Positions 44,279-61,112 of a DNA stretch of 64,000 nt are shown here, piece after piece. Position 1 is the stretch's first letter. Each line of letters begins with the position of its first letter. Below the pieces are notes generated by a model, which was given only the letters and a program-made list of their open reading frames with translations, was not told the origin of the DNA and did not search any database. Source of the DNA: Akkermansia sp. (GTDB lineage Bacteria > Verrucomicrobiota > Verrucomicrobiia > Verrucomicrobiales > Akkermansiaceae); assembly GCA_017415995.1 (NCBI GenBank), contig JAFQDN010000020.1, forward strand, positions 583 to 64,582. Direction: 5' to 3'. The position numbers were made by a program, and so were the translations under genes.

Positions 44279-44306
44279 AAAAAAACGCCCTCGTTAAGAG
44301 GGCGTT
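44279..44306 (-). terminator. Intrinsic terminator of the caspase operon
   Basis: Minus strand AACGCCCTC / GAGGGCGTT stem with a 5-nt loop, followed by U7. Confidence 0.75.
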
Positions 44307-44331
44307 GCTTTCGGATTGCTGAAAATCGGTG

Positions 44332-44940
44332 TCAGTTTCCTGCTTCTGTTGCGGCTTGTTCCCATTTAGCAGCTTCCGCCTCGTCCATCTCCACGCCGAG
44401 ACCAAGCTTGTAGCACTCGGAAAGCTTGCGGCAGGCGTCTGCATTTCCTTGCTCCGCAGCGGCTCGGTATTGCTCCACTGCCTTCACAAAGTTGAGGGGC
44501 TCGCTGCGGGTGTTGAAGTAGCATTCCGCCAGTTTGTATTGCGCATCTGCAATTCCGGCTTCCGCAAACTCCTTGTACCACGCAATGGCTGCTTTGGCAT
44601 CCGTGGGGGCTCCCTCACCGTTGTTGTAGCGCTCCTCGGGGCCGGCTGCGGGCTCCTCCTCTTCTTCCTCTGCCTGCACGGTATCGCTCTTCTTGACCTT
44701 CATGCCGCGCGTGCCTACTGTGCTTTCATCGGCAGTTGCTTCGCTCGTTGCTGCCTCTTCAGCGGGAACAGGGGGGACAGTTGTGGTGTCAGCCGTTGTT
44801 TCGCTTGTTTCCGGGGCTGTGGCTTGCTCTTGTACTGCCGGTTCAGGCTTTGCTTCCGGGGCAGGGGCGGTTTCCTCCTGCCCGCATGAGGCAAGCAGGA
44901 TGGCGGCAGCGCATAATGCGTAGTGTTTGTTCAGTTTCAT
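44332..44940 (-). CDS. Sel1-repeat lipoprotein with a disordered TRGMKVKK-containing linker
   Basis: Lipobox MKLNKHYALCAAAILLASC, a P/T/E/A-rich linker and two Sel1 repeats (AIAWYKEFAEAGIADAQYKLAECY; AVEQYRAAAEQGNADACRKLSECY). Confidence 0.8.
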   Translation of the reverse strand: MKLNKHYALCAAAILLASCGQEETAPAPEAKPEPAVQEQATAPETSETTADTTTVPPVPAEEAATSEATADESTVGTRGMKVKKSDTVQAEEEEEEPAAGPEERYNNGEGAPTDAKAAIAWYKEFAEAGIADAQYKLAECYFNTRSEPLNFVKAVEQYRAAAEQGNADACRKLSECYKLGLGVEMDEAEAAKWEQAATEAGN

Positions 44941-44964
44941 GTGTACGGATTGGTTTAGATTAAG

Positions 44965-47900
44965 TTATTTGTACTGTTGGATCAGGGCGCGGATGCGACC
45001 ACCCGGGTCATTGCCTATGCATTGCTCCACTGTGGCACCGTTTGTAGCGCGGGCATGCACATTGGCTCCGTTGCGCAGTAGCCACTCTATTATTTCATAG
45101 TTTCCTAATCCACAGGCATTGTGCAGAGCTGTGGTGCCGTTAGATTTTCCCATTACGGAATCCAAATTGGTGTCGATGAAATAGCCGTCTGCTATTTTCG
45201 GAAGGATAATTAATAACCTTTTTTGATAGAGCTTCAGTACGCTGTCCTGATAAGTGGTGTTCTGCAGCTTTTGTATGAGTGTATGTAGCTCTTCTTCGGG
45301 CGAGTGTTTTTTTTCGTTTTTTGCAGGCATGATTTTAATGAGCTCCATGTCCCCGTTGTCCAGAGCCACGGCGGCGGGGCGCTGGGCGCCTCTGGTCAGC
45401 TCCAATACTTGGCTTTGCACACCCAGCTGCAGCTCTGCCACGCTGAGTACCTTATTGCCGTTAATGTCTGCACCCTCGGCATCATTCAGCGTCTTCATGA
45501 TGGAGTAGCTGAACACACCGTTGTTCCACTCACCGGACTCCATGGCAAACTCCGCACCGGCGGATGCCGCCACGATGTTGATGCCGCGGTATTCCGGGCT
45601 GCCGGCAAACATGTCTTCCATGTAGCGCTTGGTCTGCGTGTCCGTCAGCTTGCTCTCTGTCTTTTTGACCTTCATTCCGCGGGTATTCACCGCGCGTACA
45701 CCCGGCGGCAGTGTCACTCCGGCAGCTGCCAGCTTGTCCGCATCACTCTCACCCACGGAGCCGCTGTGGCAGGTGTCCAGCAACAGCAAGCGGTGGCGTG
45801 CTTTGGTGCTCTGCAGTGTGTCGGTCAGCTCCTTCATGGAGATACCCGTGCTGCGCACGCGAGACGGATTGAACCCTGCCGGGGCAAAGTGATACTCCAG
45901 CTTGCTGTCCAGCATGCCGTGGCCGGCAATGTAAAGGATGACGCGGTCATCTTCCTTGGCATCGGCCAAGAAAGTGCGCACCTTCTCCAAATCTGCCTTG
46001 CCGGTCATTTCCTTATCCTTCAGCAGCAGCGTGTGCTTGTTGCCGGTGGTCTTTGTCTCAACGGTGTTGATGATGTCCTGAGCGTCTTTCGCTGCAAACT
46101 GCAGGTCTAAGTCATCATCATCGTAATCCGACACGCCGATAGCTACCACATATAAATCCGATTCTTCTTTCCCCTTGTAAATGGTGCGGAAGCGCGTGGT
46201 GGCACCGGCAATGCCTGCAGAGTCCACCGGGGTGACCTCAATCCAGTTTTGCCCCACCGCCAGCGGGAGCTGCACGGTTACATGGCGCTCACCCACGGTA
46301 TCGGGGGCTTCGTCTATGCCATCTTGGGGAATGAGCACACCGTTGGCGCGTACCTCCAGCTTCACTATGTCATTTTGCGTAGCGTGCAGGCGTACCTTGA
46401 AGCTCAAATCCTTGTTTTCCGCGTACAACTTGGGCAGCTCCACCTCTGCATGGGGGAAGTTGCCGAGCTCCGGCTCCTGTGGCATGTTGTTCGGGTCGAA
46501 GCCTTGCTTTTTCAGCCAGCGTTCCGTGGTGGCTTGCAGGGCTGCAATGTCATCCGCATTGCCGCCGAGCGCCTCCAGCACCTCCGCCGGGCGGTTGCGC
46601 CACGGGGCGAGTGTTTGCAGACCAACCACACGCGCGCCGTCTCCGTAATTGAGGATGCTTTCGCAACCGGGGCTTCCGGCGTAGTGTCCATTCGGCAGCA
46701 CAATGGCGTAGCCTGCATCATTGGTGAGGTACAGGTTACCCACCTCGACCGAGCTGTTGTCCTCCTGTACGCGCACAATGCGGTAGTGTTGTTCACTGGC
46801 GGGCAGCAGCAGCAAGTTCATCTTGCCGAGCCACAGAGGCTTGAGCCCGCTCTTCACGCAATCCCATTTCTTACCCACCTGCACAGAGTTTGTCGTGAAG
46901 TTCACTTTGACCATGCGCACGCCCAAAAACTCGGACAATTCTTCGTTGCCACCGAGCAACAGGGTTGCCTCCTCCTCGCTTTCCTCCACTATTTCCAAAA
47001 GCGTGCATCCGGCCCAGTCCAATCTACCTGTTTGGCTTGCGTTCAGAAGTCGCTTCTCGCCCAAATAGAACCCTTTACCGTCTTTCAGTATGCCGATATG
47101 ACCGTCATATATATCGCCTTCGTCCGAAACCCAATGGGTGAAAAGAACGAAGGAGCCTTCGCCATGGTTAATAGCGTATACCTCGCTTACGTCGGTTTTC
47201 GTGCTCTTAAAATAGCTTTGCACGAGACCTTTGCGGGTGCTGATAGGCTCTGTTTCAGCAGCAACATCATAATAGTTGAAATCATTATACTGCGATGGAT
47301 ATGAATATTCGCTCACATTGATGGAGTTCAATATACATAAGCCTTCGTCATTTGCGTTGTACCCAGAGTATGATTTTTGTGTGAATGTAAGGCTTGCCAA
47401 ATCTATGGTGTACAGCTTTTTTTGTGCCGTATAGCAGGTAAACACGCTGCCGCTGCTTATAGTGCGAATGTGCAGTGGCTCCCATACCAGTAAGCTGTTT
47501 CCTTCGCCCGGATAAGGCCACGAAAAACTCACCCCCAAGCCATCCGCTGCACTGGCTTGCTGGGCTAGGCTGGTGCCTTTAGCGATTTTTTTCGGATCAT
47601 CGCTATTAAAGGAACCATCACTGACGTTTACTCCTGAGTATGGTAGATAATATTTCTCATAGCCAGACTTTTGTCCCGTCAGGTTGCAGGTCTGCTTTTT
47701 TACACTAAGATTTTTTGTCGTGATAACCGGTACGGTGGTTCTTCCCGGTTCTACAATGCCGGTTAGGGAATGCGGAACCATCGCATAGGTCCCATCTGCT
47801 TGCTTCATGGGATATTTGTAGCCATAGTGCGCATCGTCATTCAGTCGGAATCTCCCGATGAGATCGCCTGTTCGGCTATCCCAAAAACTATAATAATAAT

Positions 47901-48426
47901 CCCCAGAGTAATCTTCGGTTGTATAGGTGCTGACAAGCACGTCTTCGTCACCGTAGCTAATAGTTTCCGTAGCTCGCGCTGCGGTTTCACGGTAAAGAAT
48001 ACCCTTTTTGGGCTGCGTGATGACTGCTGAACTCTTGGGCTCATTTTTACGCACCCACGGGGTGTTATCTGCTTTTACCAGCACCGTGGTAGGTAGTTCG
48101 GGCGCAGCTTCTTCCGGTTCGGGTTCCTCGTCTTCTTCGGGGGCTATTTCCTCAACTTTGCCGGGCGCGTCGCTCTTGTTCTGCTTCATGTCGCGAGTTT
48201 CCCCCGCGGATTCGTCCGTATCTTCCTCACTTGGCGGATTTTCGACTGTCTCTGCGAGTGATGTCTCGTCTATCGGCGTGGTTGCCTCGGCAGGGGGGGG
48301 CGTTGTTTCTGTAACCGGTGCGACTTGTTCAGGCGCTACAGGTGTGGGCTGCGGCTCCTCCTCCTGTCCGCATGAGGTAAGCAGGATGGCAGCGATGCCT
48401 AATGCGTAATGTTTATTCAGTTTCAC
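44965..48426 (-). CDS. Lipoprotein with peptidase C14 (caspase-fold) domain and C-terminal ankyrin repeats (paralog A, 1153 aa)
   Basis: GTG start and lipobox ILLTSC. Catalytic motifs are VILYIAGHG (His codon 45919-21) and LLLDTCHSGS (Cys codon 45769-71). The C-terminus carries NGTTALHNACGLGNYEIIEWLLRNGANV Ank repeats. Confidence 0.85.
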   Translation of the reverse strand: MKLNKHYALGIAAILLTSCGQEEEPQPTPVAPEQVAPVTETTPPPAEATTPIDETSLAETVENPPSEEDTDESAGETRDMKQNKSDAPGKVEEIAPEEDEEPEPEEAAPELPTTVLVKADNTPWVRKNEPKSSAVITQPKKGILYRETAARATETISYGDEDVLVSTYTTEDYSGDYYYSFWDSRTGDLIGRFRLNDDAHYGYKYPMKQADGTYAMVPHSLTGIVEPGRTTVPVITTKNLSVKKQTCNLTGQKSGYEKYYLPYSGVNVSDGSFNSDDPKKIAKGTSLAQQASAADGLGVSFSWPYPGEGNSLLVWEPLHIRTISSGSVFTCYTAQKKLYTIDLASLTFTQKSYSGYNANDEGLCILNSINVSEYSYPSQYNDFNYYDVAAETEPISTRKGLVQSYFKSTKTDVSEVYAINHGEGSFVLFTHWVSDEGDIYDGHIGILKDGKGFYLGEKRLLNASQTGRLDWAGCTLLEIVEESEEEATLLLGGNEELSEFLGVRMVKVNFTTNSVQVGKKWDCVKSGLKPLWLGKMNLLLLPASEQHYRIVRVQEDNSSVEVGNLYLTNDAGYAIVLPNGHYAGSPGCESILNYGDGARVVGLQTLAPWRNRPAEVLEALGGNADDIAALQATTERWLKKQGFDPNNMPQEPELGNFPHAEVELPKLYAENKDLSFKVRLHATQNDIVKLEVRANGVLIPQDGIDEAPDTVGERHVTVQLPLAVGQNWIEVTPVDSAGIAGATTRFRTIYKGKEESDLYVVAIGVSDYDDDDLDLQFAAKDAQDIINTVETKTTGNKHTLLLKDKEMTGKADLEKVRTFLADAKEDDRVILYIAGHGMLDSKLEYHFAPAGFNPSRVRSTGISMKELTDTLQSTKARHRLLLLDTCHSGSVGESDADKLAAAGVTLPPGVRAVNTRGMKVKKTESKLTDTQTKRYMEDMFAGSPEYRGINIVAASAGAEFAMESGEWNNGVFSYSIMKTLNDAEGADINGNKVLSVAELQLGVQSQVLELTRGAQRPAAVALDNGDMELIKIMPAKNEKKHSPEEELHTLIQKLQNTTYQDSVLKLYQKRLLIILPKIADGYFIDTNLDSVMGKSNGTTALHNACGLGNYEIIEWLLRNGANVHARATNGATVEQCIGNDPGGRIRALIQQYK

Positions 48427-48565
48427 GTGATTTGATTAGTTGATGTTATGCTGTTTTTTCGGCCATGGAAACCGATGAGCTGCTTCTTGCCCGTTTGGGG
48501 CAAGAAGCAACGCAGCGTGTGTACTTTTTTACGTGTTTCACGGAGTCCTCTATAGGGCCTGAACA

Positions 48566-48883
48566 CTAATTGGATTTTACGGCTCCGTTATTCCTCAGGA
48601 AGTTGCGGACGTTGTTGTTCGGGTCGTTACCAACGCAATCGAGCGGAGTTTTGCCACGGTTCGTTTTGCGGTTGACTTCCGCTCCGTTCTGTACGAGCCA
48701 TACAACCAAGTCGTAATAACCCATTCCGGCGGCGTAGTGCAGGGCGGTATTGCCCTTCGTTTCTGCCGTCGTCACGTTTACATCCGCACCGTTGATAATC
48801 ATCGGCAGCAACATGGTTAAGCGCTTCTTGTAGAGCTTCATGTCTGCATTGGGTGCGCTGTAGTTCTGAATGGTGGACAGGAA
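48566..48883 (-). repeat. Conserved 318-nt 3' module (terminal Ank repeat region), copy 1
   Basis: The last 105 codons of paralog B align residue-for-residue with the last 105 codons of paralog C. A 69-nt core (48774-48842 vs 53329-53397) differs at only 2 positions by eye. Confidence 0.8.
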
Positions 48884-51800
48884 GAACTGCAGCTGGTCTC
48901 GGTTATTGTCACCGCCGAGGCTCACCGTCGTCACGTTGCCTCTATTGGTATTGGCTGCGGGCTCCGTTTGCGCCGGGGCAGGGGGAGTTTGAGGCAGAGC
49001 ATCATTTTCCCCAAGCACGGACACGCGGATGTTCTTAATCATCTCGATGCCACTGCCGACCTCTTGCTTGTAGTTTGCGACGGCGCTTGTAGCGGAGGAG
49101 AAGGTCAGATTGTATCCGGCGGGGCCCACATCGCAGGGGCAGCAGGTGTATGCAATATCTTCCATCTGTTCGTGCGTGAGGACATGTGCGTATTTTGACA
49201 ATAGCGGGCTGACTCCGTCACCGGAAGGATACTGATGAATCATCGCCGTGTTGCTGCCGGTCTTCACGTATTTGTACGCTACGGACGCGCTGACGTTGAG
49301 CTTGTTTTGCAGCAACGCGGGCAGAGATTTGATGTCCGCCGCGGAGAGCCGTTGAGGGGCTTCTTCCTCGCCATCGTACTCCGCATATACGCTGAGCGCT
49401 TGGTCGTAATAAAGCGCGAGTTTCTTGCCGTCGAGGGATGCCGGAGCATAGCCTTCGCCGGAGTCAGAACCGGTGGAGGCGGGCGCATTCTTCACAAGGC
49501 TTGCGAGCTTGCTGATGCCTCGGTAGAGGGGGGCGCCGGTATCCACACGCTCACCTTTGTTGTTGCTAATGCTCGTGCTTGCACCGTGCTTGAGGGCAAC
49601 CATGGCTCGCTCCAAATCAAACGCACTCGGACCGAGCGCCGGGTTGATGTTAACGAAGGCCTTGTGCAACATGGTGTTGCCGTTTTTGTCCTGCATGTTT
49701 ACATCTGCCCCGCCTTCCAGCAAGATATCTACCAGCTCTGCAGAGACCTCGAACAGTAGCGGGTTCCCGTATTGATCACAGGTGTTGCCCTTGTAGCCAT
49801 TTTGCACCATGGCGCGCACCACATCTGCAGCATCCTCGGCGTGACGCCAGTTGCTGACGTAGGCGGCGATGACCTCCGGCTCTACACCTTTCTCCATGGC
49901 TGCCACCCAAACGGCGGCTCCGATGGGGCTTACGCGCGGCTGCTGTTGTTCAGCATTCACGGGGTGCATGAGGTTAAAGGCCTGTTTCAGCTCGTCCAGG
50001 CGGGCGCTGTCATAGCCACGACCTTGCTTCTGCCAAGTCTCGGTTAAGTTATTGAAGTCTGCCACATAGCTTTCATTGCCGTAGTAGAAGGCGCAAATCT
50101 TGTCGAGCATGAACAGAGCCTGCTCGGCATCATCTGCCTTGGCAATGCGTTTTGCCACACCTGCCCAGTTGCCTGCCATCATCTCGCTGTCTGCGCCGGC
50201 GGCAATCAGCATGGAGCCCGTCTCCGCGGCAACGATGTTGGGGCGCTGCTTGCCTTCGGATACCTCCAGCACGCGGGCTTGTACCCCGGGCAACAGTTCC
50301 GCTACGGACAGAATGCCATCCTTGTTCATGTCTGCCGTGGTGAAGTTTTTCAGCGTGTCGATGACTGCCATGGTGAAGAAGCCGTTGGGGAATCGAGAAG
50401 TGTCTTCCATGGCTTTTTCTTCACCTGCTGCTGCTGCAATGATGTTGAGCCCTCGGTACTGCCGCCCCATGGTGAACATCTCTTCAATATAGCGCTTTGT
50501 CTGAGCCTCCGTTTTCAGGCTGACCTTTGATTTTGCCGCGCGTACTTTCATGCCGCGTGTGCCTTCCTCCGCGTCAGCCTGCCCGGCTGCTTCTGCCGCC
50601 AATTTTTCTTCACCCTGTTCTCCCAAGCTGCCGGAGTGGCAGGTGTCCATCATCAGCACACGCTCGCGCGCCGGAGCATTGCACAAGGTATCCGTGAGCA
50701 TGGTCATGGTAATGCCATTGTACTCCTCCGGCGTGAACTCCGAGGGGATGAACATGTACTCTCCGCTGGTCGGGTCTACAATGCCGTGTCCTGCAAGATA
50801 GAGCACGATACGGTCATCGATGGTGCTCTCTGCCAAGAAATCCTTGACTTTTTCCAGCACGGCAGGAGTTGCCACCTCCTCATCCGTCAGCACGAGGGTC
50901 TTTACTTCTCCTGCGCCGTATTCTCGGAAGGCTGTCGCTATATCCTCAGCGTCCTTGGCTGGGAGCTTCAGATCCCGCATGTTCTCATTGTCATACTTGT
51001 AGTCAGATACGCCGAGGCTTACCACGAACAGTCGGGAGTTTTTCTCACCTCTGCGGACAACGCGGAAATTAGTAGTATTTCTTTGGTGCCCCATGGAATC
51101 AATCGGGGTAATGGAGATGTTATTTTGTCCCATTTGCAAGGGAATGGTAATCTCGAGCCCCGTTTTGGAATCTCCGGGGTTAATGAGTAAGGTATCACTC
51201 CAAGTTTGGGGAACCAATGCTCCGTTTACTCGAACCTCACATGCCGTCGTTGCTGTTTTCTTAGTTGAGTGGATTTCGCCGGTGAAGGTAACCGTTGGGG
51301 CTGTTGTAATCAGTGGCGGCAGTGAGCTTAAACAGTTGAACGGTAGTATTGAATCATCAATCTTTTGAGGCATGGGAGGCATGGCTTCCATGTCATAACC
51401 TTGTCGGGTCAGCCAGCGACGTGTCGTTTCTTTTAATGCCGCTACTTCATCTGCATCACCGCCAATGGCTTCCAAAACTTCTCCCGGACGATTTCTCCAT
51501 TGGGCTATTACATGGGAGCTGTGGTCAACATCTGTATGGCGGATAAATGATTCACAGCCCGGGGACCCCGCATATCGCCCATCCGGCAGCACGATGGCCC
51601 AGTCCGAGCCTGCTCCGGTGCACAGTGTAAACTTTTTGGTGGTTTTTGTGCTGAAATCTTTAATCTCGTAGACATCCCAGCAATTGTCTGTACTTGGCAG
51701 GCAGAGCAGATTCTTATCCGCAACCCATACCGGGTTAGGAGTGTTCTGTGCCCATGGTGTTTTGCCCCAGTTGCCCTGCCAGCTTTGTACTAATTTTCCT

Positions 51801-53120: not shown

Positions 53121-53438
53121 TTAGTTAGATTTTACAGCTCCTCGGTTCTTGAGGAAGTTGCGGATGCGGTTGCCGGGGTCATTGCCAACGCAGTCAAGTG
53201 GTGTTTTTCCGCGGTTAGTTTTGCGGTTGATTTCTGCGCCGTTGTTCACCAGCCATTCCACCAAATCGTAATACCCCATGCCTGCTGCATAGTGTAGGGC
53301 GGTATTACCCTTGGTTTCAGTCGTAGTTACGTTTACATCCGCACCGTTGATAATCATCGGCAGCAGCATGGTCAAGCGCTTCTTGTAGAGCTTCATCGTC
53401 TCATTGGACGGGCTGAAGTTCGTGATGGTGTTCAGGAA
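53121..53438 (-). repeat. Conserved 318-nt 3' module (terminal Ank repeat region), copy 2
   Basis: See copy 1. Confidence 0.8.
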
Positions 53439-56400
53439 TGTCTGCGCCTCTGCATGGCTGCCGGTGGGCACCCGCACAGCTCCCGGATTGTTGCGAATGT
53501 ACTCTGCACGCTGTTGCAGATAGCGGTAATTGCGATCGCCCGGTTCCTGCGGGCGCTTGCCCTCATTGTTACGGATATTCGGATTAGCCCCCGCCAGCAA
53601 CAATGCATCAATGACGGGAACCGTGTCTTCATCAGGAATGCACATTATGCGGTGCAATGCTGTATTACCTTGTTCATCTTGAGCGTTAACATCAACTCCC
53701 TCGCTGAGGATTAATTGAAGACAACGCAAATTATCTTGAATCTCTGCTCGTGTTCCTCTACCGGCGCATTTGTGTAACAGTTCAGTTCCTTTTGCTCTGA
53801 TGTCCGCACCATGCCGCTGCAGGAAGGTCAGATAGCCGTAACCGAAGCGTATGGACAGACACTCGGTTGCTGTTTTTTCCGAAGCTCCGAACTCAAACGC
53901 CTTCTTCATGTTGGCAAAGTTTAGGTCGCTGATTCCCGCTACTTCTTTCAAAGCCAAATCGGCATCTACTCCCGCTTGTAACAGTTTGAACAATATGTCC
54001 GTGGGCATGTCGTATTTTGCCAAGGCGAGCAAAACCTCAGTTGCATCCTCAGCAGAGTATTCACCGCGAGACCATTGTCTTACTTTCTCCCAGTCTGCCG
54101 TCTTTTGATCTGCTGCCGTGGCGTAATCAGCGATTCTTTGTTTCACCTCACTCAACCAGGGAATGGATGGGGTAACAAGGCTCATGGGATTATCCTCCGC
54201 CGTTACAACGGTAGGCTTCTGATTTCCCTTGGTGTACTTTTGCACCAATTGCAGAACGTGGTTTTGAAGCTCATCAACAGTAAGCGTGGAATCCGCGTTT
54301 TTATCTGCCTCGTCTATGTTTTCCAAGGTTTGCATAATGCAGGCGGTGAACACGCCGTTATTCCACTCCTCTCCTTCTTGTGCAAGCTCGGCACCGGCAG
54401 CCCCGGCGATGATGTTGATGCCTCGGTATGTCGTACCGGTAGAGAACATGTCTTCTATGTATCTCTTGTTTTGTCTCTCGCTCTTGAGCATTGTGCTGGT
54501 GCCGCGGAGCTTCATGCCTCGGGTTCGTTTGTTGCGGGAGGTTGCCGTGTGCGTGTGCGCATTTTTTGCCAGTTCTTCCTCTCCGGCTTCTCCCAAGGTG
54601 CCGCTGTGGCAGGTGTCCAGCAGTAGCAGCCCTTTTCTTGCCGGGGCGGATTTGATGGCATCCACCAGAGCATCCATGGAAATGCCGGTTTCTTCCAGTC
54701 GGTAGGTATCGAAGCCCGCGGTTGCGTATCGGTAATCCAAGTTCTCATCCAAGAATCCGTGTCCTGCCACATAAAGGATGACTTGGTCATTCATCCTGCT
54801 GTCAGCAAAGAAATCCTTCACTTTTTGCAGCACGGTGACATCTGCCACCTCTTTATCCGTCAGAACAAGAGTGTGAACTTTACTCTTGGCATGTTTGGCG
54901 AAACTGTCGGTAATATCTTGTGCGTCTTTTGCTGCATAGCGCAGGTCGCCCAAGTCCTCATTATCATTCTCGTAATCGGACACGCCCAGCGCTACTACGT
55001 ACAATTCCGAAGGTTGGGTAACGTCCTCATGGATAACTCGGAATTTCGTTGTGTCGCCCGCCACTCCCATAGAGTCTACAGGGCGAATCTCCAACCAGTT
55101 TTGCCCTACAGCCAGCGGAACTTGCACGGTAACCGTTTTTTGCTCACCGGGGCGTACCAGCAAGGTGTCATCCCATTCCTGCGGAATGCGCTTGCCTTCA
55201 GCATAAACTTCTACCGAGGTCATTGCTTTGAGGGGGGCTGCCTCAAGCTGTACGGTGAGGGTCTGTATTTGTTCGTTGGTATACAACTCCGGTAATTCCA
55301 CCTTGGCTACCGGCAAGGAGGCAAGAGACGGTGCTTCCGTGGAGGCGCTTTCGGTCATATGGAGCTTGTGCAGCCAGCGTTTTGTTGTTTCTCGCAGGGC
55401 TGTAATGTCATCCTCATTGCCTCCAAGTGCTTCCAATACCTCTGCGGGACGGTTTTTCCACGGAGCAAGAGCGCTCAGACCTACGGATTTGTTGCCTTCA
55501 CGGAAAGCAAGGAAGTTTTCGCAGCCCGGTGATCCGGCATAGAGACCATTCGGCAGAACAATGGCGTAGCCTCTGTTGGGATCCACATAGAAATCCGCAA
55601 TTTTATCCAAATTGCCGGATTCATCCACTTTCATGATGTCGTAGCAAACATCGCTGATGGGTTTAAGAAACCACTGTTTTTCCGGTAACCATACGGGACA
55701 GAGAAACTTTTGGGGAGATTCGAAGTGATGTCGAACCTTGTATTCAAAAGTTTGAGTGTTTAAATCCAGAATAAAGGTTTGTGCTTTACCATCGCCCCAT
55801 TCAAGAACGAGAACAACTTCCGCTATAAAGCCGTTGTCTGCGAATCGTAATGTGTGTTGGCGAACGTACGGAGCAAACTCTTCCTGTACGGATTCTATCA
55901 GGTTTCCGTCAAATTCACTTTTTCGAGGGATAACGCAGCTGTTGTAGTCGCGTAATTTGGCTGAGTGTCCTTTTCTCAAGTCTTCCCAATCATACAAATA
56001 CACGCGGTCTTCATTTGTTAATATTCCGATGATGCTGCTCGGTGCGCTGGTGCCTTCATCATAATGACAGTATATTAAAGCAAAAGGTACGTAATCATTG
56101 CTGCCTTCTCCTCTGGCTATTGATTCGGAAGCGTCATAGTCCTCCGGGTTAAAGAAGTCACATGTGCCTCCGGCGCAGGATACGGGATTTGGCACCATTG
56201 CCGTTTTTAAGCGACTAATCAGAACATCATTGGCTTCCTTTTGTTCTTGCTCCGTTGGTGGAGCTATGCGTTGCAATTCCAGTGTGTCAAAGTTGACACA
56301 GTAGGTAAAGCTCTTTTTTGCTGCTTTGTTAGAATCTCTGCCGAAAGTGTGAGTGAGGCAGACGCTGCTACCCTCACTGTAGGCTGAAATGTATGCATCC

Positions 56401-57332
56401 TTTTGTTCGCAATCTATGGGATCGGTACTCAGTTCATTACCGAGTATGCTGAGCCCGGCGGTTGTTTTCTTGAACCAAGGGGCGGTTAGTTTACCTTCCA
56501 TGACATTGAATGCCCCCGGTTTCAGGTTAAGACTACGGTAAATATCACCTGTTTTGGTGTTGCTGAAGGCTCGAAGGTAGTTTTTTGCTTCCCATTCAAT
56601 AGCCATTAACCGCTGGAATTGCCCCTTTCCCGGGAGCCATACATACGAACCGAAATAGTTGCCGGACCAGTCATAAGCGCATGCTTCTGCCGGAATATAT
56701 TGGACGTAATAGGCTAAATCTCCGTTCTTCGTAGTAGCACATAATGTGAATGAATCACTCCCGGCAAAATTAGGTAAAGAAATGCTGCTGATTTCACGTG
56801 CTGTGCGAGGATCCCAGCAGGTCAGATACGAGGAAAATGCGTCCATTTCTCCTGCCGTACGCGTTAACACTCCTTTGTCGTGCTCAAAAAATACCTGGCC
56901 TCCGTTATATCTCAAATGGTCTCGGAAGTAGATGCCTTCTTCTTTGTTTTGTGGAATATATGCTCTGGAAAAAATTTTGACGTCTTCAGGGTTTTCCAGA
57001 ATCTCCAGCAGTTTCTTCTTACACTCTGAAATTGTTCTGCATTTTGGTTCGTTAATGTCAGCTCGGAAGTTCTTGTTGTATTGCTTGTGCGTGGGGTATT
57101 TCGAGAAAAGGAAGTACTCGCCCTTGAGGATTTCCAAGTAATCCTCGGGGGAGAGCTTGTTGCGCAGCTGAAGGTTGATGTCTGCAAACTCTTCTTTTAC
57201 CCATGCTGGGAGGTCTACATCTTCATTGTTGTACAGAGGTTGTGCGTAGGCGTCATCATAATTGCTGCCGTATACCGGGAGCACTGCCGCTGCGCACAGG
57301 AAGCTCAGATTCAAAATCTGATGGGTTTTCAT
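53121..57332 (-). CDS. Exported peptidase C14 (caspase-fold) / ankyrin-repeat protein (paralog C, ~1403 aa)
   Basis: Signal peptide from MKTHQILNLSFLCAAAVLPVYG (start 57332; the ORF extends to 57368). Catalytic motifs are ILYVAGHG (His 54759-61) and LLLDTCHSGT (Cys 54609-11). Ank repeats include GNTALHRIM... and GNTALHYAAGMGYYDLVEWLV. Confidence 0.85.
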   Translation of the reverse strand: MKTHQILNLSFLCAAAVLPVYGSNYDDAYAQPLYNNEDVDLPAWVKEEFADINLQLRNKLSPEDYLEILKGEYFLFSKYPTHKQYNKNFRADINEPKCRTISECKKKLLEILENPEDVKIFSRAYIPQNKEEGIYFRDHLRYNGGQVFFEHDKGVLTRTAGEMDAFSSYLTCWDPRTAREISSISLPNFAGSDSFTLCATTKNGDLAYYVQYIPAEACAYDWSGNYFGSYVWLPGKGQFQRLMAIEWEAKNYLRAFSNTKTGDIYRSLNLKPGAFNVMEGKLTAPWFKKTTAGLSILGNELSTDPIDCEQKDAYISAYSEGSSVCLTHTFGRDSNKAAKKSFTYCVNFDTLELQRIAPPTEQEQKEANDVLISRLKTAMVPNPVSCAGGTCDFFNPEDYDASESIARGEGSNDYVPFALIYCHYDEGTSAPSSIIGILTNEDRVYLYDWEDLRKGHSAKLRDYNSCVIPRKSEFDGNLIESVQEEFAPYVRQHTLRFADNGFIAEVVLVLEWGDGKAQTFILDLNTQTFEYKVRHHFESPQKFLCPVWLPEKQWFLKPISDVCYDIMKVDESGNLDKIADFYVDPNRGYAIVLPNGLYAGSPGCENFLAFREGNKSVGLSALAPWKNRPAEVLEALGGNEDDITALRETTKRWLHKLHMTESASTEAPSLASLPVAKVELPELYTNEQIQTLTVQLEAAPLKAMTSVEVYAEGKRIPQEWDDTLLVRPGEQKTVTVQVPLAVGQNWLEIRPVDSMGVAGDTTKFRVIHEDVTQPSELYVVALGVSDYENDNEDLGDLRYAAKDAQDITDSFAKHAKSKVHTLVLTDKEVADVTVLQKVKDFFADSRMNDQVILYVAGHGFLDENLDYRYATAGFDTYRLEETGISMDALVDAIKSAPARKGLLLLDTCHSGTLGEAGEEELAKNAHTHTATSRNKRTRGMKLRGTSTMLKSERQNKRYIEDMFSTGTTYRGINIIAGAAGAELAQEGEEWNNGVFTACIMQTLENIDEADKNADSTLTVDELQNHVLQLVQKYTKGNQKPTVVTAEDNPMSLVTPSIPWLSEVKQRIADYATAADQKTADWEKVRQWSRGEYSAEDATEVLLALAKYDMPTDILFKLLQAGVDADLALKEVAGISDLNFANMKKAFEFGASEKTATECLSIRFGYGYLTFLQRHGADIRAKGTELLHKCAGRGTRAEIQDNLRCLQLILSEGVDVNAQDEQGNTALHRIMCIPDEDTVPVIDALLLAGANPNIRNNEGKRPQEPGDRNYRYLQQRAEYIRNNPGAVRVPTGSHAEAQTFLNTITNFSPSNETMKLYKKRLTMLLPMIINGADVNVTTTETKGNTALHYAAGMGYYDLVEWLVNNGAEINRKTNRGKTPLDCVGNDPGNRIRNFLKNRGAVKSN

Positions 57333-57428
57333 GTTCAGAATGTTATTAAGAGGAAAATCCTCCTCCATTCTTCGGTAGGAACGTCAATGCAAGAATGGAG
57401 GAGGGAAAGTGTGTTAAATGGGGGATGC

Positions 57429-58496
57429 TCACTCCGCAGGTGCGGTGGAGACGATGATGTGTTTCTCGCTCCAGAGGGTCTTCTTGGACACGTCCGCAGC
57501 ACTGGCTTTCTTGACCTTCTTGACAACCATGCCGCGGGTCATGACCCCGTAGGGCTCATCTTCCGTGGCGGCGGAGGCCATGCCTTTGATTTCCTTGTGA
57601 AGTGCGCTTGCGTTGGTGCAAGCAATGACTTGAACAACGTCGGAACCGAAGGGCTCAGCGATTTCAATTTCAAAACCTGCTTTGAGAGCGCCGGGTACCT
57701 CCACCCACTTGTTGGCGGGGATGAGGGTGTCCTTATGCCACTTATTGGGGAAGAGTACCACGGAGGTGCCATCGCTCTGGTGGCAGATGACGGCAATGTG
57801 GCAGGCTTGTGGGGCGCGCACGCGGAAGGAGATGGTATCCCCCTCTTTGTAGAAGCGCTCACCGTCTGCCGTGCGCAGGTCGATATCGAAGTCCTGTTTA
57901 ATGTTGAGCAGGTTGGGGTTGGCTACCTCTTCAATGCCTTCCATGGAGGCCTCGGCATTCTGAGGCTCAATCATTTCTGCTGCTTCTGCAGGCTTTTTGT
58001 CCGGCCAAACCTGACCGGTAACTGCCTTGATGGGCCAGCTGACCTTGCTCTTGGTTACACTGCCGTCCTTGAGCCAAGCAATCTCCGTGTAAAGCGTTAC
58101 GGTTTTGCCGTCTGTGACGAATCTGCCGCGCACAATGCCTTCCACTCCTTCAATGGCAATTTTTTCCACCGTGGTGCCCGGTTCTACCAAGTCAGAGGCC
58201 TGGAACTCTCCCTCCAGTTCCAAATCTCCGAGGTTGGAGCGGGTGATGACGCGCACCTTGCCGGTTTGGGGCAAGGCGATTTCCAGCTCTTCGCGGATAA
58301 CGGCGGAGAGCGGGGACATCATGGGGGTGTCGGAGTACACAAAGTTGCCTACTCCCAGGCGGATGGGAGTCGTGGAATCCGGAATTTGTTTGGCAAGAGT
58401 TGTTGCCAGTTTCTCAAACGGATCCTGCGTAGGAGCTGCCGTTACGATGGGGGCTGCTATCAGCGCTGCGAGTGAAAGTATACGTGTGAGTTTCAT
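57429..58496 (-). CDS. Exported CsgG/FlgO/LpoB-like domain + DUF4384 protein
   Basis: Signal peptide. The N-domain is IRLGVGNFVYSD...LSAVIREELEIAL...VRVITRSNLGDLELE...IVRGRF. The C-domain is ISFRVRAPQACHIAVICHQSDGTSVVLFPN...FGSDVVQVIAC, typical of DUF4384. The tail contains TRGMVVKKVKK. Confidence 0.75.
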   Translation of the reverse strand: MKLTRILSLAALIAAPIVTAAPTQDPFEKLATTLAKQIPDSTTPIRLGVGNFVYSDTPMMSPLSAVIREELEIALPQTGKVRVITRSNLGDLELEGEFQASDLVEPGTTVEKIAIEGVEGIVRGRFVTDGKTVTLYTEIAWLKDGSVTKSKVSWPIKAVTGQVWPDKKPAEAAEMIEPQNAEASMEGIEEVANPNLLNIKQDFDIDLRTADGERFYKEGDTISFRVRAPQACHIAVICHQSDGTSVVLFPNKWHKDTLIPANKWVEVPGALKAGFEIEIAEPFGSDVVQVIACTNASALHKEIKGMASAATEDEPYGVMTRGMVVKKVKKASAADVSKKTLWSEKHIIVSTAPAE

Positions 58497-58511: not shown

Positions 58512-58751
58512 TTAGCTTACAATAGTTTCTACAGTCTTTACGGTGGTGCTGTTTCTGATGGTTTCCTGTGTGGCTTTTCCAGCCGCGTTTTTAGGGGCTT
58601 TTTTGATTGCCTTTTTGGGGGAGATAATGCCGGCGGGCGTGCCTTGGGGCGCGGCCGGAGCCGTGGGAACGGGGGCAGGGGTGTTGCTTGAGGAGCATGC
58701 TGTAAGAGCCGCTGCTGCCATAGCTATTGCGGTGATGTGTGTAAGTTTCAT
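58512..58751 (-). CDS. Small P/A/K-rich lipoprotein (79 aa)
   Basis: Lipobox AAALTAC. Low-complexity but in an operonic position with 15-20 nt gaps on both sides. Confidence 0.6.
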   Translation of the reverse strand: MKLTHITAIAMAAAALTACSSSNTPAPVPTAPAAPQGTPAGIISPKKAIKKAPKNAAGKATQETIRNSTTVKTVETIVS

Positions 58752-58771
58752 GTGGGTCGGTGCGTAAGTTT

Positions 58772-59701
58772 TTAGTTGCTCGTGGTAGACTCCAGTGCAG
58801 AGCTGATGATGAGGTCAATCTCCGCCGAGGTGGAGGCAGTTTCTGCCTTGTCTGCTCCCGGGGTGGGAGGAGCACCGGCGCCGGTTTCTTCCAGTTCCAG
58901 CTGTTTGGCGCTTTCGTCGGTTTTGATAACCTTCCCCTTGGCTGAGATGGTCTTGGTGATGACTTTGACCAACGGACCGAGCTTCAGGCTGACGGTTACT
59001 TCGGCTGAGTTGTCATCCAGGTAGCTGATGCCGGTAATCTCAGCGCCCTTAATGGCGTTGCTGAAACAGGCTTTAAGCTCATCACTTTCCACCACAAAGT
59101 CGCGTACGGTGGAATCCGCCGTTATTTCCACGCCACAGGCGCGTTCGGCTAATCGACGGTAGGCATCCAGCTCTGCTGCGCGCTTGGCCATGACTCGGGC
59201 GTGTCCATCACTTCCCGGGATGGCTGCGTTACCCAAGGCGTCTATCTCTTCCGTTACGTATTCTTGGGCAACTGTGGTTTTTGCGCTTCCCAATTTTTGA
59301 GTAACGGTTTCCAACAGGGTGCGCACCTTGACGGCGCGGATGACTTCCACTCGCCCGTCTTCGTGGTAAACGGGTTTTCCTACGGTTTTTACGCCTTTAA
59401 GGGTGGCGGCAAGAACCGTCCTAACAGAGTCGTCCGCTGCTGCAAGGTCTTTTACGGTGGTGTTCCCATTGATGGAAACTCCCATAATTCTTTCCGCCAG
59501 TGCACGTGTGGCATCCAATTCCGCAGCACGTACATATTGCAGTCGCTTGGCCGTGGGTACCTTTTTCCAGATTTCCGGCAGGTCGGCTGTTGCGTCTTTT
59601 TTGATGGTTACTTTCGGGGCTGCTTGTGCTTGCATCGTAAACGGTACACCGATTCCGGCAACCCCAAGGAGTATAGCAATTGATTTGTTCATGTTGTACA
59701 A
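58772..59701 (-). CDS. Exported protein with two LPP20-like domains
   Basis: Two copies of the LPP20 signature (YVRAAELDATRALAERIMGVSINGNTTVKD and AKRAAELDAYRRLAERACGVEITADSTVRD). Signal peptide; alternative start at 59692. Confidence 0.75.
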   Translation of the reverse strand: MYNMNKSIAILLGVAGIGVPFTMQAQAAPKVTIKKDATADLPEIWKKVPTAKRLQYVRAAELDATRALAERIMGVSINGNTTVKDLAAADDSVRTVLAATLKGVKTVGKPVYHEDGRVEVIRAVKVRTLLETVTQKLGSAKTTVAQEYVTEEIDALGNAAIPGSDGHARVMAKRAAELDAYRRLAERACGVEITADSTVRDFVVESDELKACFSNAIKGAEITGISYLDDNSAEVTVSLKLGPLVKVITKTISAKGKVIKTDESAKQLELEETGAGAPPTPGADKAETASTSAEIDLIISSALESTTSN

Positions 59702-59725
59702 TATTGAGAATGAAAAGTGAGAGGT

Positions 59726-61057
59726 TTATTCCGCTCCTATCTTTTTCTTGAAAATCTTCAGGAGCAGAGCACCGATGCCTCCACAGGCCGACACGGTGAC
59801 GCCGGCGATGATTTCCCACATGAAACTACCGCCTTGCTCTTGAGCCGGAGCCGCTGCCGCCGTTGCTTCCCGCTCCTTAGTTATGCTTCCCTTGCGGAAG
59901 GAAAGGTAGCGCTTCTCGGAACGATCTAAACTGAATTCCGGCAGGATGTCGGAGATTACCTTGGCAAGCTCTGTTGAGTTGATACGGGATTCGCACTCGA
60001 TGACGGAGATTGCCGCGGCGTCAATGCTGCGTACCCATACGGCGCCGATGGCCGTTTGCTGCTCCAGACCGCTCTTCAGTTTTTCGGAACCCGGTAAGTC
60101 CAATCCCACAAACTCCAGCTTGATGGTAGCACCTAAGTCTGTTTCCGCTGCCCAGTGGGTAAAGATGCTGCGGATGAGTTGCCAGCCTGCATCGGAGTCT
60201 GCCTTGCGCTTATTGCCTTCCATTAACTGTCGTACAGCCTCACGGGCTGCTGCGGTGTCGGATGATACATTGCGGATGAGGATGTCTTGGGCAGGGGAGT
60301 TCATGGTGAGTACCACGTTGCCCGTGGCGGCATCACGCACGGTGACATCCAAGGCAATGGAGTATTTTTTGCCCGGTTTACTCCCGTAGAAGGACTGTGT
60401 CCCCGCTGCGCTGCCTACGATTTTGCCTTCTATCACATAGTCGCATGCGGATACGATGCCTTGGCTACGTGCCTCGCCTTCCGTCTTGCGCCCGAGAGTT
60501 TCAGCTCGCTTAGCCAGCATGCCTCCCTGTCCTTGGGCATTATTGAGGTCCACAACTCGCAGTCCGCATTTGGTGGCGGTGTTTCGCAGCCAGTCTGTGG
60601 CCAAGGTTCCGTTTGTCACGCCTTCTATCTGCTCGTCTATTTGGATGGCAAGTCTCGGCGCCTCGTGTTCCCTTGCCATCATCTGGAAGGTCATGGTGTC
60701 ATCGGCGGTTAGGGCTTTGTCGCTTACATCTGCCTTTATCTTTACGGTATAAAAACCATCTTCTCCCATCCCGGTGCTTACGACTTCATACTTTTTAATG
60801 TATCCTCGTGCCTTGCTGAATGTCTTGTCAGAGCTTATTTCAAAGTTTTCCATCTGCGTTTCGCTCACCAAGTCCACCCCCGCACCTTCGCGTACGGCTT
60901 CTCTTAGTGCGTCGGATAACGCTTGCGAACGCGCCGCAGGTCCATCTCCTGCTGCCTTGCCTTCAGTTTCTACCTCTACCGCATATGCGCTACCGACTAC
61001 CAGCACGGCGCATGCGGATGTTTTCCATATGGAGGAGAGTGCTTTTCGTATGTTCAT
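59726..61057 (-). CDS. Exported LPP20-like + CsgG/FlgO-like domain protein with a C-terminal TM anchor
   Basis: Signal peptide and N-terminal RSQALSDALREAVREGAGVDLVSETQ (LPP20-like). The middle contains PRLAIQI...ACDYVIEGKIVG...YSIALDVTVRDAATGNVV (CsgG/FlgO-like). The C-terminal helix is WEIIAGVTVSACGGIGALLLKIF followed by KKK. Confidence 0.65.
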   Translation of the reverse strand: MNIRKALSSIWKTSACAVLVVGSAYAVEVETEGKAAGDGPAARSQALSDALREAVREGAGVDLVSETQMENFEISSDKTFSKARGYIKKYEVVSTGMGEDGFYTVKIKADVSDKALTADDTMTFQMMAREHEAPRLAIQIDEQIEGVTNGTLATDWLRNTATKCGLRVVDLNNAQGQGGMLAKRAETLGRKTEGEARSQGIVSACDYVIEGKIVGSAAGTQSFYGSKPGKKYSIALDVTVRDAATGNVVLTMNSPAQDILIRNVSSDTAAAREAVRQLMEGNKRKADSDAGWQLIRSIFTHWAAETDLGATIKLEFVGLDLPGSEKLKSGLEQQTAIGAVWVRSIDAAAISVIECESRINSTELAKVISDILPEFSLDRSEKRYLSFRKGSITKEREATAAAAPAQEQGGSFMWEIIAGVTVSACGGIGALLLKIFKKKIGAE

Positions 61058-61084
61058 GTTATCTGTAGTTAGATGTCACTTTGT

Positions 61085-61112
61085 ATTATCTGCTTTTTTG
61101 CCCCGGTGTCAA
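61085..61112 (-). promoter_or_regulatory. Putative sigma-70 promoter of the caspase operon
   Basis: Minus strand TTGACA (61112-07), a 16-nt spacer, then GATAAT (61090-85), about 28 nt upstream of the first ATG, with A/T-rich sequence upstream. Confidence 0.55.

Follow-up and report, generated by a model that had tools for sequence, protein, structure and literature searches.

What task could three very large caspase-fold proteases perform outside the cytoplasm of a gut Akkermansia, and what ties them to the envelope proteins encoded beside them? The question is raised by a cluster of eight genes on the minus strand of Akkermansia sp. (GenBank assembly GCA_017415995.1, contig JAFQDN010000020.1), which was analysed within a stretch of 64,000 nucleotides (nt), called the window below. 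The genes are named here in order from the 5' end of the cluster: g1, with an FlgT_N domain; g2, of the LPP20 family; g2s, for a small lipoprotein; g3, of the DUF4384 family; g4, g5 and g6, three paralogous giants with a peptidase C14 domain and ankyrin (Ank) repeats; and g7, for a lipoprotein with Sel1 repeats. The cluster is one instance of a conserved module that is co-inherited across many genomes. A short segment, (T)RG(M)xV(K), recurs in essentially all DUF4384 proteins of the module, in most of its C14 and CHAT giants (about 60–90%, by a strict regular expression) and in two lipoprotein tethers, and is almost absent from the neighbouring proteins. The reading that we tentatively prefer, with rather less than even confidence, is that of a periplasm-facing proteolytic sensing/signalling system on a scaffold platform, the protease of which would cut at this shared segment.

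Recurrence of the module beyond this genome

The distribution of the module was taken from scans of genome and metagenome DNA (tblastn and maps of open reading frames, ORFs). When synteny was followed beyond this genome, the gene set and its order were found again in many Akkermansia metagenome-assembled genomes (MAGs); lake and gut metagenomes have them as well, there with TPR-CHAT giants in addition to, or in place of, the others. The closest locus, L003 from "uncultured Akkermansia sp. MAG37", is 94% identical over the g6 core, and approximately 35 further Akkermansia/Verrucomicrobiales MAG loci range from 43 to 85%. In at least 12 Akkermansia MAG loci, g1, g2, a small ORF and g3 lie directly upstream of one to five tandem giants, with Sel1 lipoproteins often interspersed. 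The copy number of the giants among Akkermansia MAGs is one in the closest relative, three here and five or more elsewhere; this relative (L003/L079) carries the four accessory genes and the g6 ortholog as its single giant, without g4, g5 and g7. Akkermansia-type g3 and giant genes (54–64% identity) were also met in MAGs labelled Lachnospiraceae or Oscillospiraceae (L011, L016, L020), and these Firmicutes-labelled contigs probably reflect a binning error and not transfer.

A metagenome scan seeded with the g3 family only, in which ORFs were classified by purpose-built hidden Markov models, yielded 80 loci from lake, gut and other samples. Most of those with enough flanking DNA have the order g2, small gene, g3, C14 and/or CHAT giants, g1. 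The related loci L074–L078 encode g2 (43–49% identity), the small lipoprotein, g3 (49%) and g1 (48%) together with signal-bearing C14 and/or TPR-CHAT giants, and the lake-type giants carry TPR, CHAT or Sel1 where those of Akkermansia carry Ank. Genes for a MASE1 histidine kinase, a LytTR regulator, a LysM protein, toxin-antitoxin proteins, KilA-N and integrase are frequent neighbours of the metagenome loci. In the lake-type loci L074–L076, L094, L095, L098, L119 and L122–L125, the MASE1 kinase (≈ 526–576 amino acids, aa), the LytTR regulator (≈ 234 aa) and the LysM protein (≈ 281 aa) are encoded divergently on the 5' side, and HicA, PIN, KilA-N, DUF2971, DUF1016 and integrase genes are interspersed; none of these genes is present in the window.

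Some g3 homologs are themselves joined to cytoplasmic domains. In P0126 and L148 (473-2449), a cytoplasmic TIR domain and one transmembrane helix precede a complete g3 module including the RGM segment, and L153 (600-3095) combines a Ser/Thr kinase, one transmembrane helix and an equally complete module. The g3 module can therefore form the periplasmic half of a signalling or effector protein that spans the membrane.

The giant proteases and the segment shared with their partners

The three giants (1153, 1511 and ≈ 1403 aa) had been assigned one architecture in the first-pass annotation of the window, and their alignment bears this out: a signal peptide or lipoprotein leader is followed by the N-terminal region, an invariant junction, an Ig-like spacer, the C14 domain and C-terminal Ank repeats. 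Pairwise identity among the paralogs is 37–38%, and the junction AIVLPxGxYAGSPGCE...W(R/K)NRPxEVLEAxGG is invariant in all three. The catalytic His/Cys dyad is intact in each giant, with the codons exactly where they had been placed (Table 1), and the AGHG and DTCHSG motifs do not vary among the three paralogs and the 11 homologs aligned with them. Pfam Peptidase_C14 (PF00656, cutoff 21.4 bits) recognised g5 (48.2 bits) and g6 (41.4 bits) and gave no match to g4 at E ≤ 0.01; the C14 domain of g4 is matched by NCBIfam and PADLOC caspase models and is 45–50% identical to those of its paralogs over the domain. The best-scoring caspase model, NCBIfam NF047832 (EACC1-associated type), reached 74–76 bits, short of the subfamily cutoff of 140, and no EACC1-like gene was found in the operon by Pfam and NCBIfam scans. 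For the C13 family there was a sub-threshold Pfam match only.

In an AlphaFold (AF2) model of g6, covering residues 101–1153 and built from a 21-sequence alignment, the mean predicted local distance difference test score (pLDDT) was 64.6, with most of the core (residues ≈ 470–1153) above 70–90 and most of the C14 region above 80. From its all-beta N-terminal region, the model passes through a beta-plus-helix junction and an Ig/FN3-like sandwich to an alpha/beta protease domain and a helical Ank tail. The top Foldseek match of this model in the PDB was the bacterial caspase-like protein GSU0716 (3BIJ, E 8e-7, TM-target 0.59), followed by the MALT1 paracaspase, and the Ig-like spacer was matched by FN3 modules; a sequence search of the PDB with the C14 core gave no meaningful match. 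The Pfam matches, the g6 model and the Foldseek result agree in placing the GHG/DTCHSG motifs on the caspase fold, as had been proposed. Profile, motifs and fold all assign the giants to peptidase family C14, and from the DxCHSG motif and an Arg in the linker we infer that they would be proteolytically active, would accept Arg/Lys at P1 and would process themselves.

Bacterial orthocaspases and metacaspase-like C14 proteins (MaOC1 of Microcystis; GSU0716 of Geobacter) have the caspase-hemoglobinase fold, the His/Cys dyad and the D-x-C-H-S-G motif in common with the giants. Metacaspases and orthocaspases cleave after Arg/Lys and process themselves in the p20–p10 linker (PMC6426788), where the giants also carry a basic residue. 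Surveys of orthocaspases noted DUF4384 as a fused domain, and fusions to repeat domains are frequent. The giants differ from orthocaspases in being exported or lipid-anchored, in having the junction and Ig-like spacer upstream and Ank repeats downstream, in being served by a dedicated four-gene envelope module, in the duplication of the linker site in their partners, and in the lack of a sequence match to a solved structure.

Closer relatives by sequence are exported proteins of Bacteroidota, Gallionella, Sideroxydans and Alcanivorax that combine WD40 and C14 and whose annotation does not go beyond caspase family or WD40 protein; their junction, Ig-like spacer and C14 domain are homologous to those of the giants (≈ 27–32% identity). 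They, too, have signal-like leaders, tandem duplication in some loci and Arg-Gly/Ala in the linker, but they differ in their clear WD40 propellers and in having neither an Ank tail nor a strict RGM segment. No conserved neighbours were found around the Bacteroidota WD40-C14 homologs, and no g1–g3 module is located nearby; therefore, the link to g1–g3 is specific to the Akkermansia/lake-type clade. The export of a C14 protease, which the first-pass annotation had contrasted with the cytoplasmic site of the best-studied bacterial caspase-like proteases, is not unusual in itself: signal-bearing WD40 homologs at ≈ 30% identity are widespread in Bacteroidota and some Proteobacteria, and the structure of a periplasmic TPR-CHAT domain, that of DdvA, has been solved (PMC11506125).

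Ank modules are present in all three giants (Pfam Ank, Ank_2, Ank_4 and Ank_5). They had been described as eukaryote-like; the accessory genes, however, have their closest relatives in freshwater metagenomes, in which the giants carry TPR or Sel1 in place of Ank, and the Ank modules therefore look like binding parts that can be exchanged for one another. In 38 Akkermansia-type giants, the N-terminal ≈ 450 aa matched no Pfam family, save for additional Ank, Sel1 or TPR repeats in a few. In the giants of L010, L013, L014, L027, L031 and L033 (1600–2100 aa), such repeats precede the beta-rich region; the junction-Ig-C14 core stays constant, and the binding modules on either side of it are shuffled.

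Exchange of sequence is also seen within the cluster. The last 300 nt of g5 (48567-48866) and of g4 (53122-53421), encoding the C-terminal Ank module, are 81% identical as DNA, compared with ≈ 38% for the proteins overall, which suggests recent gene conversion or module exchange between these paralogs. Similarly, the leader of g7 with ≈ 30 nt of its 5' untranslated region (44873-44970) is a direct repeat of that of g6 (48359-48456), 79% identical over 98 nt, and the Sel1 lipoprotein g7 seems to have been assembled on a duplicate of the leader and tether of g6. The similarity of the g4/g5 ends and the duplicated g6/g7 leader together indicate that the giant family is expanding and recombining.

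The segment that links the proteases to their partners is best defined in g3, the C-terminal consensus of which is P[YF]QVLTRGMAVKGID; R-G is invariant there, and the next residue is M, seldom I, L or V. R321 and G322 of g3 are invariant in 78 aligned sequences, and R-G is kept in all of the ≈ 60 distinct full-length g3 proteins that were examined. With the regular expression RGM.[VIL], the segment was found in the Akkermansia loci in 7/7 g3 proteins and 55/60 giants against 3/291 other ORFs; with RGM.[VILT], the metagenome loci gave 54/84 g3 proteins, 29/47 C14 giants and 28/35 CHAT giants against 6/582 other ORFs, and the g3 proteins without a match (30/84) have RG[MILV] variants or are truncated. 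The enrichment in module proteins over their neighbours is approximately 50- to 100-fold. In C14 giants, the segment is located 27–36 residues past the catalytic Cys, in a loop with pLDDT below 50; in TPR-CHAT giants, it occupies another loop, between the catalytic His (LATHGF) and Cys (LSACxTG); and in one short C14 protein, it is found in the N-terminal linker. Because it resides in different loops of the C14 and CHAT proteins and in the N-terminal linker of this short protein, the segment behaves as a portable linear motif, placed beside active sites or in tethers.

Among the tethers, that of g7 carries an 8-mer identical to the one in the g6 linker, and that of g6 a degenerate copy (Table 1); the g6 ortholog of L003 has an intact TRGMKVKK in its tether (position 85), as does the g7-like protein of L025. 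Derivation of the g6/g7 identity from the duplicated leader was considered and rejected: the duplication spans the 5' untranslated region and signal peptide only, and the g7 8-mer equals that of the g6 linker and not the degenerate copy in the g6 tether. The partners encoded in one locus tend to use matching variants, more often than partners taken from different loci: L144/L146 have RGIVVE in g3 and RGIGVE and RGISVE in the giants, compared with RGMVVKK in g3 and RGMKVKK in the giants of Akkermansia. The Bacteroidota homologs that lack the module have no RGM, yet an Arg-Gly/Ala pair (FRG, YRG, SRG) is kept in the same linker, as would be expected of an ancestral autoprocessing site.

Envelope partners, export and gene layout

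Of the labels first given to the partner genes, LPP20, DUF4384 and Sel1 were confirmed by Pfam, and the CsgG label has to be moved: no gene of the cluster is a member of the CsgG family, and the CsgG/LpoB-like fold belongs to the N-domain of the DUF4384 protein, g3. Two labels were added: g1 is FlgT_N-like, and the eighth gene encodes the small lipoprotein g2s. Against Pfam CsgG (PF03783), this N-domain scored 14.6 bits, below the cutoff of 20.8, whereas DUF4384 itself (PF14326, aa 216–294) scored 66.5 bits against a cutoff of 27. The AF2 model of g3 (pLDDT 81.5, predicted template modelling score 0.78) consists of an alpha/beta domain (aa ≈ 26–155), a helical linker, the DUF4384 beta-sandwich (aa 206–293) and a C-terminal strand-helix-strand. 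Foldseek related the N-domain to LpoB (3e-5), GNA1162 (1e-3) and CsgG (2e-3), as well as to a TolB-N-like fold, and the sandwich weakly to macroglobulin and FnIII-type domains; a sequence search of the PDB with g3 found no meaningful match. Among 129 database homologs of g3, many come from non-Akkermansia metagenomes at 45–50% identity, several had already been annotated as DUF4384 plus CsgG, and some exceed the Pfam CsgG threshold. Thus, g3 has the same alpha/beta N-domain fold as CsgG, the curli channel, and LpoB, the activator of PBP1b, but it differs from CsgG in its score below the Pfam cutoff, its type I signal peptide, the lack of a recognisable channel-forming part and its C-terminal DUF4384 sandwich.

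The g2 protein matched LPP20 (PF02169) twice, with 42.1 bits against a cutoff of 25.9, and its PDB sequence matches are chains of the basal-disk lipoprotein FlgP (E 2e-6 to 3e-4); orthologs in related loci are 43–76% identical. FlgT_N (PF16548) in g1 (aa 29–112) is marginal, at 29.5 bits against a cutoff of 28.8; there is weak full-length similarity to LipL46, and the remainder of the protein, roughly 280 aa after FlgT_N, matched no Pfam family even at E ≤ 5, nor did g1 match the PDB by sequence. In 1.8 billion clusters, the g1 family has 1510 representatives at E ≤ 1e-3 and 66 at E ≤ 1e-30. The small lipoprotein g2s is Pro/Ala/Lys-rich, and a small signal- or lipobox-bearing ORF (≈ 70–130 aa) lies between the LPP20 and DUF4384 genes in most related loci. 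The lipoprotein g7 consists of an acidic/Pro-rich tether and three Sel1 repeats (PF08238, 48.5 bits).

FlgT, FlgP and FlgO of the outer-membrane-associated flagellar rings of Vibrio and Campylobacter offer a parallel, in that FlgT_N in g1, the LPP20/FlgP family of g2 and the related fold of the g3 N-domain are encoded together as a trio. Here, however, the context is not flagellar: the genes around g1 in the window encode proteases, a PEP-CTERM protein and an RND pump. Of FlgT, g1 has the N-domain alone, barely above its cutoff, and it ends in a transmembrane anchor; g2 has its domain twice in tandem and lacks a lipobox, and the partners are proteases. The folds of g1, g2 and g3 are typical of ring- or layer-forming envelope proteins, and their assembly into one structure would be consistent with this.

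All eight products carry an export leader, either a signal peptide or a lipobox, as read by eye from the sequences, in agreement with the export first predicted for the three giants. Lipoboxes were recognised in g2s (LTA|C), g6 (LTS|C) and g7 (LAS|C), and signal peptide cleavage sites in g1 (AYA|VE), g2 (AQA|AP) and g5 (VQA|QE). The leader of g2 ends in ...TMQAQA|APK, with no Cys and hence no lipobox, and the type I signal peptide of g3 likewise has no Cys. For g4, the upstream start, 12 codons 5' of the ATG at 57332, is probably not used, because it is only from 57332 that the product opens with a signal peptide (MKTHQILNLSFLCAAAVLPVYG) and can be aligned to the beginning of g5. The C-terminus of g1 is a transmembrane anchor with a KKKIGAE tail, and the hydrophobic helix is conserved in the Akkermansia orthologs; lake relatives have short aromatic tails such as WWPF in its place. 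The g1 homologs without a transmembrane helix (L090, L092, L094, L099, L123, L130) have aromatic/basic ends (…KPWWKVW, …GWWPF, …KKGIFGGLFGK), and the TPR-CHAT giant of L074 (L074:11742-14582) ends in a tail of the same type, …KKSGWWPF; such a tail may be an alternative signal for membrane association or sorting. Profile searches of the operon proteins recognised neither a channel of the outer membrane nor a C-terminal domain of the T9SS type, nor any other signal for secretion.

The ORF list and spacing agree with the first description of the cluster as eight co-directional minus-strand genes (61057->44332) with gaps of 15–139 nt; from g1 to g7 these are 24, 20, 15, 60, 19, 139 and 24 nt. The near-consensus promoter and the hairpin terminator proposed earlier were both recovered by a consensus scan. 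The promoter match (61112-61085) agrees with the consensus at 11/12 positions and is the top-scoring site of the region, where promoter-like sites are not in excess (13 observed, 12.8 expected from shuffled sequence), and the terminator scan found the hairpin and T-run at 44306-44284. An alternative ORF of 94 aa (58591-58875), in another frame and overlapping g2, was rejected as a gene; the 79-aa lipoprotein ORF of g2s fits the conserved small-gene slot. The GC content of the g4–g5 DNA (52000–58000 of the window) is 0.47–0.50, compared with ≈ 0.53–0.57 in the surroundings. On the 3' side, the cluster faces a convergent RND efflux operon that is complete (membrane-fusion protein, AcrB-like pump and outer-membrane factor) and has a terminator-like hairpin of its own; on the 5' side, a divergent gene encodes a protein with a C-terminal PEP-CTERM sorting motif (Pfam, 23.5 bits), the remainder of which has no family match.

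Table 1 Features of the eight-gene cluster and its flanks in the window
Feature	Position	Strand	Description
g1	59726..61057	-	443 aa
g2	58772..59701	-	309 aa; probable start = ATG 59692
g2s	58512..58751	-	79 aa
g3	57429..58496	-	355 aa
g4	53121..57368	-	1415 aa as ORF, probably 1403 aa from M13 (ATG 57332); in order: signal peptide, all-beta N-terminal region, junction, Ig-like spacer, C14 (His870/Cys920), Ank repeats
g4 His codon	54759-61	-	catalytic dyad
g4 Cys codon	54609-11	-	catalytic dyad
g5	48566..53101	-	1511 aa; signal peptide, C14 (His772/Cys821), Ank repeats and extra insert in C-terminal part
g5 His codon	50786-88	-	catalytic dyad
g5 Cys codon	50639-41	-	catalytic dyad
g6	44965..48426	-	1153 aa, GTG start; lipoprotein, ~100-aa acidic/Pro-rich tether, all-beta N-terminal region, junction, Ig-like spacer, C14 (His836/Cys886), one Ank module
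g6 His codon	45919-21	-	catalytic dyad
g6 Cys codon	45769-71	-	catalytic dyad
g7	44332..44940	-	202 aa
g3 segment TRGMVVKK	57516..57539	-	aa 320-327, C-terminal segment; starts helix, pLDDT ~88
g4 segment TRGMKLRG	54501..54524	-	protease linker, 29-36 residues past catalytic Cys
g5 segment TRGMKVRA	50537..50560	-	protease linker, 27-34 residues past catalytic Cys
g6 segment TRGMKVKK	45661..45684	-	protease linker, 29-36 residues past Cys886; low-confidence loop
g6 degenerate copy TRDMKQNK	48175..48198	-	lipoprotein tether
g7 segment TRGMKVKK	44689..44712	-	lipoprotein tether; 8-mer identical to g6 linker
Sigma-70-like promoter match TTGACA-16-GATAAT	61085..61112	-	27 nt upstream of g1 start codon; consensus match only
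Intrinsic-terminator-like hairpin + T7	44279..44306	-	9 bp, 6 GC; 26 nt past g7 stop codon; pattern match
HlyD-like protein	38029..39501		RND efflux operon, 3' flank, convergent
AcrB	39511..42750		RND efflux operon
OEP	42638..44185		RND efflux operon
Terminator-like hairpin	44211..44243		of the RND efflux operon
Promoter-like site	61489..61516		of the PEP-CTERM protein gene
PEP-CTERM protein	61542..63716		724 aa; 5' flank, divergent

Proposed cleavage at the envelope and its alternatives

The reading preferred here can be worded as a sequence of steps. The g1 protein would be anchored in the inner membrane by its C-terminal helix and, together with g2 (a double FlgP/LPP20 fold), the small lipoprotein and g3, would form a periplasmic platform on which the giants dock as zymogens. 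Their variable beta-rich N-terminal regions and Ank modules (TPR or Sel1 elsewhere) would bind or sense a trigger, and the activated protease, presumed to be Arg-specific, would cut after the invariant Arg, TR|GM. The protease would first process itself, in the loop beside its active site, and later cuts at the same segment in g3 and in lipoprotein tethers such as that of g7 would release or remodel these proteins. The output would be an envelope-level sensing/signalling or defence response, rather than nutrition or host attack: the g3 module of relatives is the periplasmic half of TIR/kinase transmembrane proteins, and the locus often adjoins toxin-antitoxin and integrase genes and a LytTR two-component system. 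With the RGM segment and the TIR/kinase fusions, sensing and signalling at the envelope become the likeliest role.

In function, the closest analogue is DdvA. Its periplasmic TPR-CHAT domain, which has been solved, is proposed to clip the protein's own flexible tether, acting in trans, and thereby to signal from the envelope inwards to the cytoplasm and to a defence island; DdvA is linked to phage defence (PMC11506125). The parallels lie in the periplasmic caspase fold, in the tether and linker segments and in the TIR/kinase fusions found here. DdvA differs in being a single polypeptide with its own transmembrane helix and a cytoplasmic zinc-binding anti-sigma domain, the cleavage itself being still hypothetical (PMC11506125), and in having no FlgT/LPP20/DUF4384 partners and no reported RGM segment. 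Cytoplasmic conflict systems that combine caspase/CHAT with TPR or WD40 (EACC1-associated, craspase/Csx29 and STAND-type) have a caspase-fold effector with repeat sensors, a variable copy number and defence-island-like neighbourhoods in common with the module; in the module, by contrast, there is no NTPase, EACC1 or CRISPR partner, and every component is exported.

Several results weigh against the cleavage-based sensing system. Cleavage, periplasmic location and function are predicted, and the export leaders were judged by eye. Within the giants, the first ≈ 370 modelled residues of g6, where sensing would be expected, are unreliable; this region is plausibly a degenerate WD40 propeller, but comparison of the N-terminal regions with the WD40 regions of Bacteroidota homologs by hhalign returned one blade-like match, "FWDsRTG", at a probability of 15%, and the all-beta model is of low confidence. 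The strict RGM segment is absent from approximately one-third of the C14 and one-fifth of the CHAT giants of the metagenome loci, and several g7-like Sel1 lipoproteins are without it. When g3 was shuffled among 39 loci, 0/5000 permutations reached the observed similarity between g3 and giant segments, but this within-locus co-variation is modest (3.13 against 2.65 ± 0.11 identities), and the permutation ignores the relatedness of the loci. That the eight genes form a single transcribed operon would follow from spacing and consensus signals only, and the window holds no TIR, kinase or two-component neighbour. PADLOC-DB 2.0 returned no system match, with no hits for g1, g2, g2s, g3 and g7 and with generic caspase/Ank models only for the giants. 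Searches of open-access papers turned up no account of either the gene module or the RGM segment, in keeping with the early statement that no characterised system of this composition is known.

In the g3 model, the segment does not form an exposed loop but is structured, lying at the end of a strand and the start of a helix with pLDDT ≈ 88, and a docking or structural role therefore fits it at least as well as a cleavage site. This leads to an unlikely but serious alternative, in which the segment is a docking or exchange element: it would pack against the DUF4384 sandwich in g3, and the giants and Sel1 lipoproteins would insert their own copies into this site of g3, or into a common partner, and so attach to a periplasmic FlgP/FlgT/CsgG-like ring or lattice, the proteases acting on other envelope substrates, for example in quality control or remodelling. 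The confident modelling of the structured segment in g3 speaks for docking, as does the similarity between g3 and the giants, which spans ≈ 12–14 residues either side of RG and exceeds a typical protease site; all three scaffold folds are known from ring-forming envelope proteins (the FlgP matches in the PDB, FlgT_N, LpoB/CsgG), and the within-locus co-variation would be equally expected. On the other hand, docking alone explains poorly why the segment stands beside active-site residues of two unrelated protease families, in different loops, and the Arg is kept in the linker of homologs without the g1–g3 module. A transpeptidase resembling sortase, comparable in principle to PorU of the type IX secretion system or to the GPI transamidase, is much less probable still; it would cut at RGM and join the new end to an acceptor in the envelope, so that cargo becomes attached to the wall or outer membrane. 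Caspase-fold transamidases do exist, one internal tag is common to otherwise unrelated, cargo-like proteins, and in Akkermansia the residues after the putative scissile bond are Lys-rich; but the tag lies inside protease domains and near the C-terminus of g3 and not at a uniform terminal position like a sorting signal, no acceptor-synthesis genes are linked, and there is no similarity to C25/PorU, or to C13 beyond the sub-threshold match.

The first-pass annotation had left open an envelope or host-directed machine, possibly vesicle-associated. An uncharacterised protease system of the envelope agrees with the present results and is strengthened by its conservation; the host-directed or vesicle-borne machine, with giants exposed at the surface or released, Ank/Sel1 repeats binding host proteins and accessory proteins serving export or display, has become improbable. 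The organism is a gut Akkermansia, the Ank and Sel1 repeats might suit host binding, the copy number of the giants and their terminal domains vary between MAGs in a way that would fit host- or niche-driven diversification, and two members are lipoproteins that could be displayed on the surface; the similarity to Legionella Ank effectors is at the level of the repeats only, with a best score of 48.6 bits against equivalog cutoffs of 500–1400. Against this, the module is common in freshwater lake metagenomes with TPR, CHAT or Sel1 giants, g1 has an inner-membrane-type C-terminal anchor, no secretion signal or channel, outer-membrane components included, was recognised (g3 has no lipobox and stays below the CsgG cutoff), and the TIR and kinase fusions of g3 point towards the cytoplasm. 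A fortuitous neighbourhood of independent envelope genes, with the RGM similarity as chance or low-complexity noise, might draw on the number of promoter-like sites, which does not exceed the shuffled expectation, on the 139-nt gap ahead of g6 and on the absence of g4, g5 and g7 from the closest relative, but it is effectively refuted by a gene order kept across dozens of loci at 35–85% identity, by the enrichment of the segment and by the invariant R-G of the g3 family.

The cleavage-based sensing system can also be extended to a more specific proposal, which we consider possible but doubtful: an unrecognised class of system in which an extracytoplasmic caspase/CHAT cascade would operate on a FlgT/FlgP/CsgG-like platform, with RG(M)xV(K) as its activation, substrate or docking code and, in some lineages, a relay through a TIR domain or Ser/Thr kinase fused to the DUF4384 receptor, as an envelope immune or damage sensor. 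If this doubtful proposal were true, the cascade would be a periplasmic counterpart of the cytoplasmic caspase-based conflict systems and of the caspase cascades of eukaryotes.

All component families of the module are known; new are their assembly, its breadth, the shared segment and the TIR/kinase couplings, which match no characterised kind of system, for a function as yet unproven. Bacterial caspase-fold proteases are understood mainly as cytoplasmic death or defence effectors, and DdvA is, to our knowledge, the one structurally studied periplasmic example. If the preferred reading is true, many Verrucomicrobiota-type bacteria, including relatives of health-associated gut Akkermansia, would run multi-protein proteolysis outside the cytoplasm, governed by a sequence code, TRGMxVK, for cutting or docking and linked to TIR and kinase signalling. 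It would put names to substrates and cleavage sites of a class of enzymes for which hardly any bacterial substrate is known, would give a role to DUF4384 and to non-flagellar FlgT/FlgP-like proteins, and would raise the question of whether phage, toxins or envelope damage are sensed by periplasmic proteolysis. The variation in copy number and domains between Akkermansia lineages could, moreover, bear on differences between strains in their interactions with host or phage.

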